This document shows, in pieces, positions 14,878 to 53,978 of a stretch of 64,000 nucleotides of DNA. This stretch comes from a virus. The stretch spans positions 53,907 to 117,906 of the IMG/VR virus record IMGVR_UViG_3300045988_057044. The stretch is one strand, 5' to 3'. Position 1 is the first letter of the stretch. Every line of letters starts with the position of its first letter. The position numbers were made by a program, and so were the translations under genes. The notes beneath the pieces are model-generated. The model was not told the DNA's origin. It saw nothing but the letters and a program-made list of their open reading frames with translations, and searched no databases.

Positions 14878-15455
14878 ACTCCAGTATGTCCAAATCCTCC
14901 TTCTCCTCGTTCAGTAGAAGGTAATTCTTCAACAACTTCCCATTCTATAGTTTCATGCTTAGCAATGACTACTTGGGCAATTCTTTCTCCATCAGTAATT
15001 CTAACTGGGACATTGGAAGTGTTCACTAATACAACTCCAATCTCTCCTCTGTAGTCAGCGTCAATGGTTCCAGGTGAATTAAGGACAGTAAGTCCCAATT
15101 TTAGTGCAAGACCGCTTCGTGGTCGAACTTGCGCCTCATAACCCTTAGGTAAAGCTATAAACAATCCAGTCGGAATCAAACATCTACCTCCTGGCTTTAT
15201 TTCAATAGTAGAAGCAACGGGAATACTGGGAACTCTTCTATCAGTAGGATTTCCTTCCTTGTCTATCACAAATGGACCATTTGGATCTTCAATTTTACTA
15301 ATAGCTACAACATCAGCATCGAAAAAGAATTTCTCAGGCTTATTGTCTACTAACTTAATTCTACTAAAGTCTCCTCTAATATCCATACCTGCTGATAAGG
15401 GAGTTTCATACTGAGGAAGTTGATGTCTTGATTTATTAATTATGAGTACTTTCAT
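14874..15455 (-). CDS. dut: dUTP diphosphatase (dUTPase)
   Basis: dUTPase motifs [41 protein letters not shown]. Confidence 0.85.
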
Positions 15456-15990
15456 GTAATAAAATAAATTCAGTTAAATAAAATCTTGCATCTATAACAC
15501 ATTTAGGAACTAGTCCTTCTAGGCTTAAATTAGATCTTAGGGCATCTCTTACAACAGTAGCCGATATACCTTCTTCTACCTGTTCTCTTGCCATGAGAGT
15601 CATTGATATATAACCCTTTAGCATAAACTTTGGAAACCATGTTGTAATAATTTCGTATCCATCGCTATAGTAGATATTAAAATGGGACTCTTTTATAATA
15701 CTAACTATGTTAGCATATAAATAGAATCCCCAATCCTGAGAGTTATCAGACTCATCAGTCAAATCATTAAGAGGCTGAATGATACATCTACTAAGTAAAC
15801 CTTCGTCCTCTAAGGCAGTTTCTAGTAATTTTATCCTAACCTTTATAGGAATAGGATTACGCTTGTTTACTTTATCAGCACTACCAACTAACAAAAGAAC
15901 CTTATCGTTCTCTGAACAAGCTTTTTTAATTAAAGCTAGGTGCCCATTGTGAATGGGCTGAAACCTAGCTAAAATAACTCCATATTTCAT
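15436..15990 (-). CDS. nicotinamide/nicotinate mononucleotide adenylyltransferase-like cytidylyltransferase
   Basis: N-terminal [21 protein letters not shown] = (H/T)xGH nucleotidyltransferase motif of the NMNAT/NadM/NadR family. Confidence 0.65.
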
Positions 15991-16916: not shown

Positions 16917-17410
16917 AAACGTGATGTTATGTCTTTAACTATGGGTTTTCCACAGCTATTATCTATATGAAGCATAACTTGATTAGTTGTCTTACTATTT
17001 AAAGGTCCGTTTTCTTCAATATATGGACCTAGCTTGATATAATCGAAATGCTTCATATTCACGTGCTCAGATAGTTCTTGTCTACCTGAGTACCATGCCA
17101 CTTTTAAATTCGGATAATAATCTTTAACAAAACTAGCTAACACATTTACTAGGTGAGGATCAGAATCCCCTCCCATAAATGCTATACACGAAATACCATC
17201 TGTAATTAGTTCGTCTAGATGAATAATGTAATCATCGGAGAACCCCTGCGGATATTCAATTAATGGTTTACCTATATCTTCGGCTAGGTATTGACTATGA
17301 CATCCTTTACAATGACAAGGACAGTTAGATATATTTATAGCTAATGTAATCTCATCCGGAATTTCCTGAAAGACTACTCTGGCATCAACATATTTAAGCA
17401 TACTCCTCAA
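16907..17410 (-). CDS. nrdG: anaerobic ribonucleotide reductase activating protein (radical SAM)
   Basis: Cys cluster NCPCHCKGC (Cx3Cx2C), size ~167 aa, immediately downstream of nrdD. Confidence 0.7.
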   Translation of the reverse strand: MRSMLKYVDARVVFQEIPDEITLAINISNCPCHCKGCHSQYLAEDIGKPLIEYPQGFSDDYIIHLDELITDGISCIAFMGGDSDPHLVNVLASFVKDYYPNLKVAWYSGRQELSEHVNMKHFDYIKLGPYIEENGPLNSKTTNQVMLHIDNSCGKPIVKDITSRFWK

Positions 17411-18059
17411 TCTTTTTAGTTTCTGTATCTAATATAAAAGGTCTTCTTACATCTAAGCAAGCAAACTTGTCAGTAATAATGGGTTCTGATTCCAATTGAG
17501 TATGTCCAAATATTTGATAATATGTAGACTCTCTATCTCCTTCTCTGACATCGCTCCATACCATACCGCCTGTATTAGACCATCCTCCTCTCATACGAGA
17601 TACTTCCCATAGGAAGCCAACTAGAAAGTCCTCAGGCTTAGTAATTAGGTCAGTAATAGTAAAATCCATACTCTTTAACCAATCATTAGTAACTCCAGCA
17701 TGAGTATATAGAATACCTTCCGAGAAGTATTTGAGTTGGAATAGAGACTTGAAATTCTCAAACATTTCCTTAATTAGCTCTGCATTAGCGTAATCATACC
17801 TAGAAGCACTTCCGAAATCATAGCAATAAGCACAGTCGTGATTTCCAAGGAGTAGTATTACCTTATCGGGATTATCAACCTTGAATTGGATAATCTCTTT
17901 AAACTCCTCTATAGCATTCTCTCTAGTAATACCTTCATAACCATATGGGTCGAGGTAGTCCCCTAAAAAGACTACCTTATCCACACTATTAATCTTCTCT
18001 TTTGCTTTTCTCCAGAATGGTCTTCCGTGAACATCTGGAATAATTAAAATTTTACTCAT
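17394..18059 (-). CDS. Ser/Thr-phosphatase-like metallophosphoesterase
   Basis: Motifs IIPDVHGRP, GDYLDPYGY, GNHD. Confidence 0.7.
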   Translation of the reverse strand: MSKILIIPDVHGRPFWRKAKEKINSVDKVVFLGDYLDPYGYEGITRENAIEEFKEIIQFKVDNPDKVILLLGNHDCAYCYDFGSASRYDYANAELIKEMFENFKSLFQLKYFSEGILYTHAGVTNDWLKSMDFTITDLITKPEDFLVGFLWEVSRMRGGWSNTGGMVWSDVREGDRESTYYQIFGHTQLESEPIITDKFACLDVRRPFILDTETKKIEEYA

Positions 18060-35551: not shown

Positions 35552-36361
35552 TTATTTACAAACGTCTATTACAGTTAAGTTCTCGTTGCTGGGACGATAA
35601 TTAATATCCCTATGAGAATTAGATACAATAACCTGGTCAAAATTATTACACATATTAATCAGACCTTTATTATTAACTGCGTGACATACGATTATGATAA
35701 ACTTGCTATTTGGATATCTCTCTTTGAGAACCTTAAGCTCTCCTAGGAAAGTTCCTCCAGCATCACACAAGTCATCAATGAACACAAATGTAGAATAGTA
35801 GCAATTCTTAGACTCCTCTATTTCAAAGGACTCAATTCTTCCAGTCTCTAGATTTCTTTCCTTTTTGAAGACTAAATAACCATAGTGAGAATAGTTACTT
35901 CCATATCTGTCCTTCGCCCCATGGTCTGGGAACACGATATTACTTTGGGCTGGAATCCAAGAGTGGTGTCCAAATTCCCAAGGTAAACATCTGTCACCAA
36001 GAAGATGAAAAGTTCTACTAGAATGTGCCTCAAGAACATATATGTTTCTATAGCCTAAGCTATTTAACATATTACATACTACTTTCAAGGAGAATGGACG
36101 ATTAAAACTCATTACTCTATCCATACGCATAGACATTAAATAAGTAATGTGTAAATCCCATTCTACTTCTTGTCTATCTAAAATATCTCCTACTTGCATT
36201 AAGAGGAATAAATCCTCAGTATTAGATATTCTACAAATGACATCAATAGATTCCTTTCTGTTTAATTCCTCAGTAAGGAAAAACTGAGGCTCTCCATCAG
36301 GAAATCTAGTAACATCGTACTTAATTTCACTGATTTCCTTGTTGATTAAGTTTAATTTCAT
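35552..36361 (-). CDS. ribose-phosphate pyrophosphokinase family protein (Prs / possibly ADP-ribose pyrophosphokinase Adps)
   Basis: N-terminal VTRFPDGEPQFFL (cf. Prs RFSDGE) and PRPP-binding loop FIDDLCDAGGTFL (type I PRTase motif). Confidence 0.7.
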   Translation of the reverse strand: MKLNLINKEISEIKYDVTRFPDGEPQFFLTEELNRKESIDVICRISNTEDLFLLMQVGDILDRQEVEWDLHITYLMSMRMDRVMSFNRPFSLKVVCNMLNSLGYRNIYVLEAHSSRTFHLLGDRCLPWEFGHHSWIPAQSNIVFPDHGAKDRYGSNYSHYGYLVFKKERNLETGRIESFEIEESKNCYYSTFVFIDDLCDAGGTFLGELKVLKERYPNSKFIIIVCHAVNNKGLINMCNNFDQVIVSNSHRDINYRPSNENLTVIDVCK

Positions 36362-36782
36362 CTACTACATATTTTAAGATTTCATAACTTTCTTCCAGAC
36401 CTGCCCTATCATCTAGGAGGATATTATAATAGGGTTTCTCAGAATTAGGAAATACAGGACTTTCATTTGTATATAGCTCAAAGTCTTCATCCAGACCTAA
36501 TAATTTAGCAGTTTTCATCTGTTTAATACATAGCTCTTGAAGATTTGTTTCACAGGTAAACAATATCAAATGAAATCCCAATTTATAACACTTATTAAGT
36601 AAATTTATGACTTCACTATAATCTCCTCCATTATTATGGTAATCGAAAATAGTATTATCAAAATCGAAAGCGACTATTAGCTTTCCGTATTTATGATACT
36701 CTTCTAATAGTCGTTTCTTGCAAGCTTCTTTCCCAAAAGGATGATTAAAGTCCATTGTCAATTCTTTGTCTGATTTCTTCAA
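36327..36782 (-). CDS. HAD-superfamily phosphatase
   Basis: VAFDFDNTIFDY (DxDxT motif I). Confidence 0.5.
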   Translation of the reverse strand: MKKSDKELTMDFNHPFGKEACKKRLLEEYHKYGKLIVAFDFDNTIFDYHNNGGDYSEVINLLNKCYKLGFHLILFTCETNLQELCIKQMKTAKLLGLDEDFELYTNESPVFPNSEKPYYNILLDDRAGLEESYEILKYVVDEIKLNQQGNQ

Positions 36783-38295
36783 GAGAATATTCTTTCTTCA
36801 AGATGCCATCTTCAAAGACAGTCTCTAAGCATCCCTCTTTTTCCTCCTCGATTGAGACCTGGTCGGTAGCAGTATACTTCCCATCCAGACATTTATAGAC
36901 AGCAATCAAACCTTTCAAAGAGTTCTTAGTACCATCATCAGTTTTAGGATGTTTGAAGATTTCTTTCAATTCGCCATTTACTACGCAAGCAGTAGCCTTA
37001 ATAGCAAACCCAAGACTATCTCTACTTGCATACTGATAGGAATATGAACCTACTCCCAGAACGAGATTACAAGCCGCCATATGAGCGTTTTCTAATCTCA
37101 AGTAGATTTGCTTTTGACGTTCTAGAGTAATAGAATCTCCATAAAGCAAACCAACCTTAGTGCTAGGATAGCGGTAATCCTTTGAAGTAGTATTCCATCC
37201 GAAGATTTTACCAAGCATATAATATGCCCCATAATATTGACCTTCGGACACTTCAACATACTCTGCATCGTCATTAAACGGAGCATAGCAGCAATAATAC
37301 TTACCTTCTTTCATTCTGGTATTGAAGTGAGGATTAGTTCTCAACCCGCAGATTATATCTACTGGGTCTCCACTATCAGGACGGATTACTACTCTACCAT
37401 CACGAGCCATAATGTCTTTCTTCAGCTTGGGCAAGAAATTTTCAATTACATTCCAGAAATCCCAAGTATCAGATACAATAGAAACAAACCCAGAAGGATA
37501 CAAATCATTAATTAGACGTTTGAAAGTGCCCAGCTCATCTTCCTCCCCTCCAGCACACATTACAGAGTGTTCTGTTGCTGGAACTGTAGCAGCAATCAAT
37601 TCCTCGTCTGAATTAGCTCCATAATATTCTTCCAAAGCAGCAATAGCTGGAATAGTCTCACTTCCCACAAAAGAAGTCATATGCGCCATACCAGATATAA
37701 TTGCGGCTTCCATTCCTGCCATACCTCGCATTGAGAAATCATGACAGCAAAAACCAAGATTTACATCTGTTGGAAAACCAGTCTTGCAAGCATGACGATG
37801 TAGCTCTTTCTTATAGAGCCTAGCTCTAGTAGCAGATGTGCACGGCATCCACAAGGTACAGCTGATAATAGTCTCTAAGTAGTTAGTTAACCAAAAGAAC
37901 TCGGGTAGGGTATTTGTAATGGTCATCATGGGAACCCGAATAGGGCACACAGAACCTTCAGGAAGAGCCTTTATGCGAATTGGTAGATACCCAAGGTCAT
38001 ATAAAGCTTCAATATGTCTGTACCCAACGGATTCAATACCAACAAAGTTGTTTACTCTACGATAGAACATCTCTACAGCTTCCTTCTTTGGTAGATTAAA
38101 GAAGTTTTTCTCAAACTGTTTAATGAGATATTCTTTGATTAGGTATTGAATACCAAATACTACTGAACCTTCGGTTGCTTCTGGGAAGTATTTATTACTT
38201 CTAGGAGTCCAGTTACTATAAACTTGTTCAGTACCTTCTGGGTACATCCTGTGATGGCCTAATTTGTAACCATCTGTTGCATTAATTATTTCCAT
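36745..38295 (-). CDS. nadV: nicotinamide phosphoribosyltransferase family (NadV/NAMPT; possibly Namat)
   Basis: N-terminus ATDGYKLGHHRMYPEGTEQVYSNWTPRS is the conserved NAMPT start; ~516 aa. Confidence 0.85.
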   Translation of the reverse strand: MEIINATDGYKLGHHRMYPEGTEQVYSNWTPRSNKYFPEATEGSVVFGIQYLIKEYLIKQFEKNFFNLPKKEAVEMFYRRVNNFVGIESVGYRHIEALYDLGYLPIRIKALPEGSVCPIRVPMMTITNTLPEFFWLTNYLETIISCTLWMPCTSATRARLYKKELHRHACKTGFPTDVNLGFCCHDFSMRGMAGMEAAIISGMAHMTSFVGSETIPAIAALEEYYGANSDEELIAATVPATEHSVMCAGGEEDELGTFKRLINDLYPSGFVSIVSDTWDFWNVIENFLPKLKKDIMARDGRVVIRPDSGDPVDIICGLRTNPHFNTRMKEGKYYCCYAPFNDDAEYVEVSEGQYYGAYYMLGKIFGWNTTSKDYRYPSTKVGLLYGDSITLERQKQIYLRLENAHMAACNLVLGVGSYSYQYASRDSLGFAIKATACVVNGELKEIFKHPKTDDGTKNSLKGLIAVYKCLDGKYTATDQVSIEEEKEGCLETVFEDGILKKEYSLEEIRQRIDNGL

Positions 38296-38308
38296 TCTAA
38301 AAATTATT

Positions 38309-38815
38309 TTAATAACTGATTGTTAATAAACTCTTCATGTTTTTACCGACAGCTAAATTCTTAAAACATTGAGTGATAAACTCTTTTGTCTCTGGATGAA
38401 TCGCCCTGGGAGCGCTAATATATTTAATCCACCAGTTATATTCTCCTTGGAAACTATTTCCATTATACACCTTACCAGCGGCTAAATAATCACACACTAG
38501 CTCCAATGCATATTCTCTAGGGATTTTCACCGGGACTCCACCAGAATCTAATTGAGTTACCCAATATTCATAATGATGTGGATTTCTTCCTCTATGATGT
38601 AAATAGGACCTAGAATAGCCCAGAATTTCTTTCTCCTTATTTAATGGAGATGTGTTATCATCGTAAAATTTAACAGAACGAGAAAATTCATACCATCCGA
38701 ACTTAGATAAATCGTGCAAAATGCCCTGCCTATATAGTCCTAATTGGAAGCAATAGTATGCAACCCAGAACTTATGCCTTAGTATCCTTCTTAGATGCTT
38801 TAATATCCGAATCAT
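38309..38815 (-). CDS. HD-domain phosphohydrolase-like protein
   Basis: GILHDLSKF ... LHHRGRNPHH (H...HD...H...H metal ligands). Confidence 0.4.
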   Translation of the reverse strand: MIRILKHLRRILRHKFWVAYYCFQLGLYRQGILHDLSKFGWYEFSRSVKFYDDNTSPLNKEKEILGYSRSYLHHRGRNPHHYEYWVTQLDSGGVPVKIPREYALELVCDYLAAGKVYNGNSFQGEYNWWIKYISAPRAIHPETKEFITQCFKNLAVGKNMKSLLTISY

Positions 38816-39104
38816 ATAACGAATCTCCTAGAAAGTTAAGAATAGGGACATCTACTGTATAGTCTTCATTGTACACTGCAAATGCGTATACTACCCACGA
38901 TACTAGTGAGGCACCTAAACCAAGCGGAGGGATAATCAAACTAGCTACAACAATAATAATAGTCCATCTAGGGATTTTTATTCTTGTAGCTTTAGAAGTT
39001 AACCAATTTACCTGGTAGGTGTAGTACAGACAGTAATATAGAAGCGCATAAAGTATAAGCCCTATGCCATCGCATATTAAATACACAAATTTAAGATCTT
39101 CCAT
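38772..39104 (-). CDS. small integral membrane protein (110 aa)
   Basis: Multiple hydrophobic helices (GLILYALLYYCLYY..., IIIVVASLIIPPLGLGASLVSWVVYAFAV). Confidence 0.4.
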   Translation of the reverse strand: MEDLKFVYLICDGIGLILYALLYYCLYYTYQVNWLTSKATRIKIPRWTIIIVVASLIIPPLGLGASLVSWVVYAFAVYNEDYTVDVPILNFLGDSLYDSDIKASKKDTKA

Positions 39105-39424
39105 ATCTTCTTTATAATTTTAGTCAGAAAATTTCTACCTCTTAACGTATACTTGTGAGTATATCCGTCATTTCTGTTAGGATTCCACAGAGCATGGATT
39201 GCATAGTATATATAGCCTACCATATATAGTACTATATTCAAGACAGGAACAAATCCCAGAACTATGATTAGTAATACTGCCCAGATTGGAACCTTAATGT
39301 CATACTCTTCGTCTATGTTAGCATAGTTGCTACTATACCCAGTCCAATAAACCGTAACATGAGTATCTTTTAAGATAAGCACCGTGACGATTATCATCAC
39401 AGTGCATATTATTAAGTACATCAT
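39077..39424 (-). CDS. small integral membrane protein (115 aa)
   Basis: Hydrophobic helices MMYLIICTVMIIVTVLIL, WAVLLIIVLGFVPVLNIVLYMVGYIYYAI. Confidence 0.4.
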   Translation of the reverse strand: MMYLIICTVMIIVTVLILKDTHVTVYWTGYSSNYANIDEEYDIKVPIWAVLLIIVLGFVPVLNIVLYMVGYIYYAIHALWNPNRNDGYTHKYTLRGRNFLTKIIKKIWKILNLCI

Positions 39425-39693: not shown

Positions 39694-40710
39694 TCATTGC
39701 TCAGAAACTATTACAATTCTGTTAAATTCATTATCTCCAAAATCAGTAGTAACTCCACATCCCTTCACGGTAAGTTTGTCTTCCGGAGCACCATAGTTAA
39801 CCAGAGCCTTCTTCATAGATTCCGCTCTAGCATTAGCTAATTTGTTGTTGAAATCAATAGGTCCCTCTTCAGAAGCATATCCCTCTATAATATATGACTT
39901 ACCACTATTTGCTATGTAGGCTGCTAATTCAGACACGGCAACATTAGAGGTAGCAGATATTTCAGAGGAGTTTTGTAAGAATTGGATTTTAGGAGTAAGT
40001 AATTCTACCTTAGTAATTTCTATGGTATCTACCTTAACTACCTCAACAGGTTTGCGAGCCATAAGTTCATTATTCTTCTCTCTCAATTCATTAATAGACG
40101 CATTTAAGCTTTCTATTTCCGAATCGTTATAAAGTTTCATAACTGGGAAATTCCCTTTGCTCGACTTAAATCTGTAAGTAGCTCCTACATAAACATTGAC
40201 TTCTTGGTTTAATGGGGTAGTTTTAGGAAGTAGCATATATTCTGGGGTTATATTTAACGCCCACGTATCAGTAATGTTGAAATTACATCTTACTGCACCA
40301 CGCGCAGATACATTGTTATAGACGTACCCATAGGTATGATACCAACCTGCTCCTATAATCAATACTGGTTCAAACAGACGTCTATTGCCTTCATAGCCAC
40401 ATACCAGATTACTAAGATTGGTAGTAACATTAGCCGTAAGGTTGTGTGAATCAAAGAATGTCTTATTTCCCTGATTCATACCAGCTACCATGTCTAATTC
40501 TAGGCCAAAGATAGGTGTAATTTCTTTACCTACAGCAATATTCACCAGAATATCATTAGGTTCAGCCCAACTTCTCTGATTGTCCCAAACTGTAGTTCCA
40601 ACATTACCGGAAATATACCAATTGTCTTTCAAACTTCCAGTTTCTACAACTTGTGCACTTACAAACGCACACATTAAACACAAACAAATAATACTAAAAA
40701 TTTTCTTCAT
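39694..40710 (-). CDS. OmpA-family outer-membrane protein (beta-barrel + OmpA C-terminal peptidoglycan-binding domain)
   Basis: Signal peptide MKKIFSIICLCLMCAFVSAQ; C-terminal FLQNSSEISATSNVAVSELAAYIANSGKSYIIEGYASEEGPIDFNNKLANARAESMKKAL...KGCG matches OmpA_C. Confidence 0.75.
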   Translation of the reverse strand: MKKIFSIICLCLMCAFVSAQVVETGSLKDNWYISGNVGTTVWDNQRSWAEPNDILVNIAVGKEITPIFGLELDMVAGMNQGNKTFFDSHNLTANVTTNLSNLVCGYEGNRRLFEPVLIIGAGWYHTYGYVYNNVSARGAVRCNFNITDTWALNITPEYMLLPKTTPLNQEVNVYVGATYRFKSSKGNFPVMKLYNDSEIESLNASINELREKNNELMARKPVEVVKVDTIEITKVELLTPKIQFLQNSSEISATSNVAVSELAAYIANSGKSYIIEGYASEEGPIDFNNKLANARAESMKKALVNYGAPEDKLTVKGCGVTTDFGDNEFNRIVIVSEQ

Positions 40711-53675: not shown

Positions 53676-53978
53676 CTAAACTTCCATTAATATACTTGTC
53701 CATACTTTAATCCCAATATTCTGGGCAGTCATTAATAATCCCTTTTCGCAAAAGCCTTTATCATAGAAAATGCAGGATGAACACGAAAGATTGTCCCTAG
53801 ATTCATATTCTTGAATACCTTCTTGAATATCTCTTTTTGCTTTATATCTATCCTTTCTATTCTCTTTCTTGTATTCATATTGCATCATTCTGCTTCTATA
53901 AGGAGAAGTGCAATTCTTAAGCATCTTTGCGTATTTAGAACTATCAAGGAAGTCCGTAATTGACTCACAGACCTTCAA
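53676..53978 (-). CDS. hypothetical protein (100 aa)
   Basis: ORF track. Confidence 0.35.
   Translation of the reverse strand: MKVCESITDFLDSSKYAKMLKNCTSPYRSRMMQYEYKKENRKDRYKAKRDIQEGIQEYESRDNLSCSSCIFYDKGFCEKGLLMTAQNIGIKVWTSILMEV

Follow-up and report, generated by a model that had tools for sequence, protein, structure and literature searches.

The 64,000-nucleotide (nt) stretch analyzed here, positions 53,907 to 117,906 of the IMG/VR virus record IMGVR_UViG_3300045988_057044 (hereafter, the window), comes from a crAss-like phage and carries at 35552-38815 a block of minus-strand genes that includes relatives of Adps and Namat, the two enzymes of the NAD+ reconstitution pathway NARP1. Three of these genes are best explained, with moderate confidence, as an operon-like NARP1-type cassette with the gene order Namat-HAD-Adps, in which a predicted phosphatase of the HAD superfamily would act on phosphorylated ADP-ribose (ADPR) and would thus be equivalent to Adpp, the Macro-domain phosphatase of other NARP1 operons. 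The genes under consideration are the following.

35552-36361, minus strand: Adps (Prs family), 269 amino acids (aa), with RFPDGE and FIDDLCDAGGTFL motifs; member of phrog_619
36327-36782, minus strand: predicted capless phosphatase of the HAD superfamily, 151 aa when read from a TTG codon, with FDFDNT as the DxDxT motif
36745-38295, minus strand: Namat (Nampt family), 516 aa, with an N-terminal DGYKLGHH
38309-38815, minus strand: HD-like DUF5662 protein, 168 aa, directly upstream of the Namat gene
15436-15990, minus strand: NMNAT-like nucleotidyltransferase of the single-domain NadM/archaeal type, 184 aa, with FQPIHNGH and ISATVVR motifs

The block consists of four co-directional open reading frames (ORFs), in which neighbors either overlap or are separated by a 13-nt gap. 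The first-pass annotation, made from the sequence without database searches, recognized these contiguous minus-strand genes but counted five of them while listing the four that are present. Its assignments of a ribose-phosphate pyrophosphokinase family protein with the two motifs given above, a HAD phosphatase, and an NAMPT-family enzyme with a GYKLGHH N terminus all agree with the results below. The Adps and Namat genes lie on the same strand with 384 nt between them, and the HAD gene is the only one in that gap. The true start of the HAD gene is probably the ATG codon at 36755, which would yield a 142-aa protein that begins with MDFNHPF, as its homologs do.

The Prs-like and NAMPT-like proteins can be assigned to the NARP1 core with high confidence, based on their sequence relationships. 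In phmmer searches, the Namat protein matched the structures of SPβL1 Namat (PDB entries 9W5X and 9W5W) with an E value of 2e-145, compared with ~1e-66 for human NAMPT; it also matched PF04095/PF18127 and phrog_448 (7e-183). Namats are distinguished by a specific helix (SCH) with the motif GSxΦxΦxΦTRD, in which aromatic residues hold the adenine of ADPR pyrophosphate (ADPR-PP) like a clamp, and by an SCL loop that has Arg, Lys, or Tyr as its third residue (PMC12774641). The window protein has GSYSYQYASRD as its SCH, which agrees with this 11-residue pattern: residues 3, 5, and 7 are aromatic, and Thr is conservatively replaced by Ser. Its SCL reads S-N-K-Y, where Lys is the third residue and Tyr comes next, in line with the Bas63-type rule. 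The catalytic residues are retained, including the His in PATEHSVM, the Arg and Asp in VIRPDSGD (equivalents of R306 and D308), and the HDFSMRG motif. The nicotinamide-binding Asp (D215 in SPβL1 Namat and D219 in the human enzyme) is replaced by Glu across the whole crAss-like clade and retained in the Namats of Bacillus, Vibrio, and Aeromonas phages; in the window, this Glu is found at about residue 214, in the motif GSET (region 37654-37656).

The Adps protein matches phrog_619 with an E value of 4e-52. Its score with the Prs model TIGR01251 is 60 bits against a cut-off of 113, and it scores lower still with all other Prs equivalogs in NCBIfam. In BLASTP comparisons with validated Adps enzymes, it scored 77 bits with Bas63 (5e-20), 70 bits with SPβL1, and 68 bits with FADO, compared with 39 bits (3e-7) for Prs from Escherichia coli. 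The Lys residue corresponding to K162 of SPβL1 Adps, whose replacement by Ala inactivates that enzyme (Osterman 2024, bioRxiv 10.1101/2024.02.11.579819), is conserved (KKERNLETG in the window aligns with GHKQRNFHTG), and the PRPP (phosphoribosyl pyrophosphate)-type binding loop is intact (DDLCDAGGT aligns with DDLSSFGGT). Both core enzymes are thus predicted to be catalytically intact, and the concern raised in the first-pass annotation that the genes might be catalytically dead is not borne out; the comparison of Adps/Namat with Prs/NadV that it proposed places the Prs-like protein nearer to the validated Adps and below the Prs cut-offs and the NAMPT-like protein nearer to SPβL1 Namat. A housekeeping pair of Prs and NadV is ruled out by the family cut-offs, the best-hit comparisons, and the Namat clamp motif. 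The window Adps is 44.7% identical to its ortholog in cr126_1 and 41.0% identical to that in DAC15, both of which are given in Table S1 of Osterman 2024 as Adps with Namat nearby, the cr126_1 Namat being listed as "Adps-associated" (bioRxiv 10.1101/2024.02.11.579819). Because crAss-like orthologs are listed there as NARP1, the core itself is already known. Both this cataloguing and the 2026 description of NARP1-AP, with its operon-embedded phosphatase, had been overlooked in the first-pass annotation. By homology to the characterized enzymes, Adps would carry out the ATP-driven pyrophosphorylation of ADPR to ADPR-PP, and Namat would combine ADPR-PP with nicotinamide, regenerating NAD+; together, they would reverse the cleavage of NAD+ by Thoeris, SIR2, DSR, SEFIR, and similar defenses.

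From its motifs and its structural model, the product of the middle gene is predicted to be a HAD phosphatase of the capless type, with a Rossmannoid fold and the complete set of four catalytic motifs. The residues of these motifs (D40, D42, and T44 of DxDxT, T76, K116, and D124-D125) are invariant in 40 homologs, and the same residues are invariant across the family members from crAss-like, Bacillus, Vibrio, Aeromonas, and Lak phages. A single-sequence search with the window protein gave no match in Pfam, NCBIfam, or PDB; the protein matches phrog_1238 (6e-22), a family misnamed "phosphoheptose isomerase." In a Foldseek search with the AlphaFold2 model (pLDDT, the predicted local confidence score, of 91.7), the top matches were all HAD proteins, namely, 2obb, 2p9j, the phosphatase of T4 PNK, and GmhB, with E values of 3e-3 or weaker; a KdsC-like protein is among the closest small HAD folds, and the profile of the family retrieves 2obb from PDB with an E value of 0.002. 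At 50% identity, the family forms 562 clusters (E<=1e-10), and it ranges over phages of Bacteroidota, Bacillota, Vibrio, and Aeromonas, as well as many bacterial genomes. In two of its members (P0326 and P0367), HAD is joined to a nucleoside 2-deoxyribosyltransferase-like domain (PF15891, Nuc_deoxyri_tr2), and in one (P0308) to a GIY-YIG domain; no fusions with Adps, Namat, or Macro were found among the 150 best representatives. Certain relatives of the cassette (loci L018-L024, L012, and L045; L numbers designate the surveyed loci) have mosaic alleles: their Namat and Adps are 99-100% identical to those of the window, but their HAD shows only 64-73% amino acid identity. Most of this divergence falls between motifs II and III, where the specificity elements of HAD enzymes are usually located. 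In the same IMG/VR relatives, DUF5662 falls into two classes, of about 93% and about 67%.

It is quite probable that the HAD enzyme functionally belongs to NARP1. Among the IMG/VR loci anchored on the HAD gene, Adps and/or Namat are adjacent in 76 of 80, and both are present in 74. In a survey of GTDB with one genome per GTDB species, the corresponding number was 60 of the 80 loci, where the genes were always co-directional, came in five orders, and were spread over several phyla; the bacteria with HAD and NARP1 include Flavobacteriia, Mucilaginibacter, Saprospiraceae, Paenibacillus/Cohnella, and Clostridia. The order Namat-HAD-Adps of the window is also seen in cr126_1, Bacillus phage Belinda (Herelleviridae) has Adps-Namat-HAD, and Vibrio phage VPT02 (Demerecviridae) and Aeromonas phage PhAER-3 have Adps-HAD-Namat. 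In the Lak megaphages, the HAD gene is immediately upstream of Adps, and a distance of over 200 kb separates the two from the Namat-like gene, which makes for a split pathway. Such Lak-type arrangements were found at loci L070 and L079, and in the Prevotella phage Lak-B5 (MK250024), HAD and Adps occupy positions 413060-414354, with the Namat-like gene at about 196 kb, a coordinate taken from sister Lak-B records. Neither chance nor shared ancestry explains why HAD remains next to these genes in five different orders, in unrelated phage families, across bacterial phyla, and, in Lak, beside Adps only. The first-pass annotation was right in placing the HAD gene outside the described two-gene cassettes, yet the conserved neighborhood and the displacement by Adpp described below tie it functionally to them. 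Two further loci carrying the cassette, L249 (DXLM01000001.1, 186 kb, a "Bacteroides sp." metagenome-assembled genome [MAG], with a HAD protein 100% identical to that of the window) and L250 (a "Clostridium sp." MAG, 67% identical), are probably crAss-like phage contigs misbinned as bacterial MAGs.

The proposed role of the HAD enzyme comes from the gene that takes its place. NADases with RES domains (aRES) produce ADPR-1''-phosphate, which NARP1 cannot use, and 15% of NARP1 operons carry the Macro-domain phosphatase Adpp, which restores ADPR; the same preprint mentions unspecified "additional genes," and its screening relied on Macro Pfams only (bioRxiv 10.64898/2026.01.28.702374). In 13 related crAss-like loci, a 164-aa Macro-domain protein (PF01661) replaces HAD between Namat and Adps, with DUF5662 still upstream. 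This protein is 38% identical (E value of 1e-27) to the biochemically validated Adpp of Vibrio phage Gary. A comparison of loci L053 (with HAD) and L143 (with Macro) reveals 93% nucleotide identity across the entire Namat gene; the similarity stops at the 3' end of Namat, at the stop codon, and returns in Adps at about 71%. In the Namat tree, the Macro-bearing cassettes group with three HAD-bearing ones (L052-L054), and the remaining branches carry HAD. None of the 240 loci has both HAD and Macro. In the window, no Macro domain (PF14519, PF01661, or PF20016) was recognized by Pfam in the cassette ORFs, the two ORFs downstream, or the two ORFs upstream of DUF5662, and a tblastn search of the window with the crAss-like Adpp homolog returned no match. 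The exchange is a textbook case of non-orthologous gene displacement, and the HAD enzyme is proposed to do the job of Adpp because a homolog of Adpp displaces it in the same slot. It would thus be a nonhomologous replacement for Adpp and not a member of the Adpp family, dephosphorylating a phosphorylated ADPR that Adps cannot use and handing ADPR back to the pathway. Its likeliest substrate would be the ADPR-1''-phosphate made by aRES-type RES NADases; 2'-phospho-ADPR and the monophosphate derived from ADPR-cyclic-phosphate (ADPR-cP) are other candidates. The aRES proteins are encoded in 4.7% of Bacteroidota genomes and 10.4% of Bacillota genomes, including those of Bacteroides thetaiotaomicron and Prevotella.

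Several observations weigh against this assignment. The substrate proposed for HAD follows only from gene position and displacement, and the same position is no proof of the same substrate, as HAD and Macro could counter different modified ADPR products. The fold says nothing on specificity, because the fold neighbors act on such unrelated phospho-substrates as heptose bisphosphate, KDO-8-P (the 8-phosphate of the sugar acid KDO), and DNA 3'-phosphate. There is no NARP1 within 6-8 kb of the HAD gene at 20 of the 80 bacterial loci and a few viral ones; the neighbors of the bacterial stand-alone HAD genes (fasciclin, dockerin, radical SAM, and exonuclease) are uninformative. The locus counts are phylogenetically redundant, given that numerous gut contigs are almost the same and that some loci are in both IMG/VR sets, and the aRES frequencies are phylum-wide values, not those for the host of this phage. 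Finally, co-transcription of the cassette genes is suggested by their overlap and orientation, and a scan for sigma-70 promoters and terminators yielded sites no more frequent than in shuffled sequences, so the operon boundaries cannot be called.

A less likely possibility is that HAD does belong to the cassette but acts on a substrate other than that of Adpp, perhaps in answer to an undescribed defense chemistry. The candidates here are NADP+/NADPH or 2'-phospho-ADPR, in which case the NADP pool or the product of its cleavage would be turned into a substrate for NARP1; the mononucleotides of nicotinamide (NMN) and nicotinic acid (NaMN); and an excess of ADPR-PP or PRPP, whose removal would provide a safety valve. 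The neighborhood evidence fits this explanation just as well. As a rule, HAD phosphatases show specificity for monophosphates of sugars and nucleotides; the two fusions with PF15891 point to nucleotide or ribose-phosphate substrates, and the region between motifs II and III is the most variable one and differs between phages with otherwise identical cassettes. However, the ADPR-1''-phosphate phosphatase Adpp is the sole characterized enzyme found in exactly this slot and is cleanly swapped with HAD in sister phages, and a phosphatase of NMN or ADPR-PP would oppose the rebuilding of NAD+.

Participation of the DUF5662 protein in the NAD+ pathway appears unlikely. As a fourth member of the cassette, it could act as a binuclear phosphodiesterase of the HD type, opening ADPR-1'',2''-cyclic phosphate, a spontaneous dead-end product of ADPR-PP, and passing the product to HAD, mirroring the yeast route of a cyclic phosphodiesterase and Poa1p; alternatively, it could degrade immune signals of the cyclic ADPR type or cyclic nucleotides. 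Such a role is doubtful as well, although there are observations that would fit it. The protein matches PF18907 (1e-27) as its sole Pfam assignment, and its invariant residues (H14, H34-D35, H73-H74, H80-H81, and D109) form an H..HD..HH..HH..D pattern that fits a binuclear HD site. The AlphaFold2 model has a pLDDT of 86, and its fold neighbors HD-GYP, PgpH, and V-cGAP are all cyclic-nucleotide phosphodiesterases, with Foldseek E values above 1; searches of PDB with the single sequence and with the profile found nothing. The gene is separated from Namat by the 13-nt gap and precedes it in most crAss-like relatives, in the HAD and Macro versions alike. ADPR-cP accumulates in vivo as a by-product of NARP1 action (Osterman 2024, bioRxiv 10.1101/2024.02.11.579819), and other accessory enzymes, RyDEP and Adpp, are known inside NARP1 loci. 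In one viral contig (L067/L152, 8013-8958), the order is Namat-HAD-DUF5662-Adps; there, however, the HAD ORF is only 78 aa long, owing to a frameshift, pseudogene formation, or an assembly error.

Against membership, 15 of the 80 DUF5662 loci are devoid of NARP1. In L140, the same backbone, with the genes for RNase H, a 137-aa protein, and DUF5662 and, farther along, a ketoacyl synthase, is kept and the cassette is absent, and L161 has the order PhoH/PIN-DUF5662-RNase H-GyrB, also without NARP1. Outside Crassvirales, the Moorella phage and the Manatee Spring phage encode DUF5662 far from any NARP1, and the HAD-NARP1 cassettes of Bacillus phages, Vibrio phages, and bacteria lack it, except for the two misbinned crAss-like contigs. 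In some relatives, DUF5662 is split from Namat by a gene for an AAA ATPase or endonuclease VII (L003, 5506-6324; L005, 5662-6177), and these insertions mark the junction as an insertion hotspot. Because the same backbone occurs without the cassette, DUF5662 has been downgraded as a dedicated NARP1 member; most likely, it belongs to the phage backbone, and the cassette lies next to it. The HD-domain label of the first-pass annotation is compatible with the HD-like pattern of His and Asp residues; the link to the module is weak, given the location of this gene next to RNase H in relatives without NARP1. A bolder version, in which HAD represents a second, nonhomologous, and widespread class of NARP1 feeder phosphatases, perhaps with a substrate other than that of Adpp, and DUF5662 acts upstream as a phosphodiesterase in a four-enzyme salvage line of crAss-like phages, has a similarly low likelihood.

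It is improbable that the cassette is a plain two-gene NARP1 and that HAD is a general phosphatase of the nucleotide pool or polynucleotides (a 5'-nucleotidase or a PNK-like 3'-phosphatase) that happens to be encoded in the same region of early genes, with DUF5662 and the NMNAT-like protein being equally unrelated to the pathway. The setting would be suitable for such an enzyme: the window in its entirety forms the leftward arm of a crAss-like (Crassvirales) gut phage, an arm devoted to replication and nucleotide metabolism, and its other products include PolA, an ATP-dependent ligase, dUTPase, NrdD, an NrdG-like protein, a DnaB-like helicase, an SF2 helicase, RNase H, and an OmpA-like protein. 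The phosphatase of T4 PNK is among the fold neighbors, and NARP1 is lacking at 20 of the 80 bacterial HAD loci. Further, the Adps and Namat genes of cr85_1 are immediate neighbors, so that no third gene would fit between them, and L099 and L102 have no HAD, which makes HAD dispensable for the core. The adjacency of HAD and NARP1 genes throughout the gene orders and lineages listed above, down to the Lak megaphages with Adps alone, argues against this explanation, and the same-slot exchange with Adpp argues for a pathway role.

The NMNAT-like gene is real but independent of the cassette. As stated in the first-pass annotation, it is a separate gene with an (H/T)xGH motif; its product matches PF01467 (1e-11), its top NCBIfam matches are all NMNAT models, all below the curated cut-offs, and its best PDB match is the archaeal, NadM-type NMNAT MJ0541 (1e-9). 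The HxGH and ISxTxxR motifs are intact, and there is no Nudix domain; the phage homologs are the NMNAT halves of NMNAT/Nudix proteins, with 25-40% identity. The gene is located 20 kb from the cassette among nucleotide-metabolism genes and is 84-100% conserved in the IMG/VR contigs that carry the cassette. It is also found in Bacteroides phage BS-TP1, where a search for Adps with a cut-off of E<=1e-20 gave no match and an inspected stretch of 40 kb has no annotated NARP1 gene. NARP2 consists of a PRPP-preferring Nampt of the KVP40 clade, which is not associated with Adps, and an Nmnat, fused to Nudix in the KVP40 type, and no phage with both NARP1 and NARP2 was found by Osterman 2024 (bioRxiv 10.1101/2024.02.11.579819). 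The suggestion in the first-pass annotation that this phage carries components compatible with both pathways is not supported: no second Nampt-family gene was found in the window, the only one being the Adps-adjacent Namat with its clamp, and the NMNAT-like protein is unlinked and lacks the Nudix half, so NARP2 is not present. Conversion of NMN to NAD+ by this protein, as a side route, would be chemically possible but is unsupported.

Canonical NMN salvage or a NARP2-like hybrid, in which PRPP would come from Prs, NMN from Nampt, and NAD+ from the separate NMNAT, is very improbable: SPβL1 Namat does keep about half of the PRPP-dependent activity of human NAMPT in vitro (PMC12774641), the NMNAT-like gene has intact motifs and occurs in all close relatives with the cassette, and its product could re-ligate NMN released by Metis-type cleavage into AMP and NMN (the cleavage being as given in the aRES preprint), but the Nampt-family protein groups with Namat and not with the PRPP-preferring enzymes, the Prs-like protein is below every Prs threshold and nearer to Adps, and the properties of the NMNAT-like gene and the lack of phages with both NARP1 and NARP2 in Osterman 2024 speak against it.

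The assignment of the window to Crassvirales agrees with its PolA, which is 45-52% identical to those of IAS virus, cr111_1, and ΦcrAss001-like phages, and the cassette block shares 94.8% identity with a human fecal phage contig and about 68% with cr126_1. The OmpA-like protein (39694-40710, minus strand), which combines an outer-membrane beta-barrel and an OmpA domain with an N-terminal signal peptide, is encoded just upstream of DUF5662, accompanied by two small predicted membrane proteins (39077-39424 and 38772-39104, both on the minus strand), and has a counterpart in the relative L003. A gene for a calcineurin-like metallophosphoesterase (17394-18059, minus strand) is flanked by the NrdG-like and NrdD genes. 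Genes for a beta-ketoacyl synthase and an acyl-carrier protein (PP-binding) are found a few genes downstream of the NARP1 cassette in L004 (8982-10387), L005, and L006 and also occur in L140.

NAD+ depletion is among the commonest bacterial antiphage strategies, and the counter-pathways NARP1, NARP1-AP, and RyDEP are the subject of a very active field. In the literature searched, in which Osterman 2024 was covered as a preprint, there was no paper that links NARP1 with a HAD enzyme and none that mentions DUF5662. In the absence of such a link, and with the aRES preprint having screened for Macro Pfams only, the HAD-type phosphatase appears to be new, while phosphatase-bearing NARP1 as such is known. 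An unrelated HAD enzyme in the Macro slot of many phages and bacteria widens the known counter-defense repertoire of phages, explains a gene that is misannotated across databases as "phosphoheptose isomerase," and indicates that screens with Macro Pfams undercount extended NARP1 operons. It also locates this arms race over NAD+ in the human gut, between the crAss-like phages, which are very abundant there, and the Bacteroides that they infect. The assignment makes a testable prediction, that HAD should complement Adpp, and the HAD and Macro versions of the cassette with 93%-identical Namat DNA provide natural, isogenic-like pairs. Should the substrate of HAD turn out to differ from that of Adpp, the enzyme would mark an undescribed NAD+-depletion chemistry in gut Bacteroidales and other hosts, one that yields a differently phosphorylated ADPR product.

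Among the known systems, the NARP1 loci of SPβL1, Bas63, and FADO (bioRxiv 10.1101/2024.02.11.579819) share with the window the adjacent Prs-family Adps and Nampt-family Namat, the clamp motif and the catalytic His, Arg, and Asp of Namat, and the catalytic Lys of Adps. In contrast to these loci, the window has Namat first and a third gene between the two, and its Adps shares no more than 25-28% identity with the validated enzymes; unlike in SPβL1, the D215 position is Glu throughout the crAss-like clade, and the clamp Thr is Ser. In NARP2 of Vibrio phage KVP40 (the Nampt NadV and the NMNAT/Nudix protein NatV), a Nampt-family enzyme and an NMNAT-like protein are likewise encoded in one genome, but the Nampt-family enzyme of the window is an Adps-associated Namat, and its NMNAT-like protein lacks Nudix, scores below the cut-offs, and is unlinked. 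The uncharacterized small HAD-like protein BT_0820 of B. thetaiotaomicron (2OBB) is the closest to the window HAD in both solved structure and sequence, with a Foldseek probability of 1.0 and aligned DFDxT, Ser/Thr, Lys, and DDR motifs; it differs in being chromosomal, is about 24% identical, and has no known NARP1 context. RyDEP, an accessory enzyme in the NARP1 locus of mycobacteriophage DyoEdafos, turns 2'/3'cADPR into ADPR (bioRxiv 10.64898/2026.05.28.727677) and shares the "feeder enzyme" logic with the role proposed for HAD, although it differs in both fold (an RyR domain) and chemistry (that of a glycosidase); no gene with an RyR domain turned up in the cassette or in the neighboring ORFs scanned. 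The closest parallel in layout is NARP1-AP of Vibrio phage Gary, which has the order Adps-Adpp-Namat and counters aRES (Osterman 2026, bioRxiv 10.64898/2026.01.28.702374). Both cassettes consist of three genes, with a small phosphatase gene embedded between those of the core enzymes; the phosphatase of the window, however, is a Rossmannoid HAD enzyme with an Asp nucleophile instead of a Macro domain, has no homology to Adpp, and would escape a screen based on Macro Pfams.

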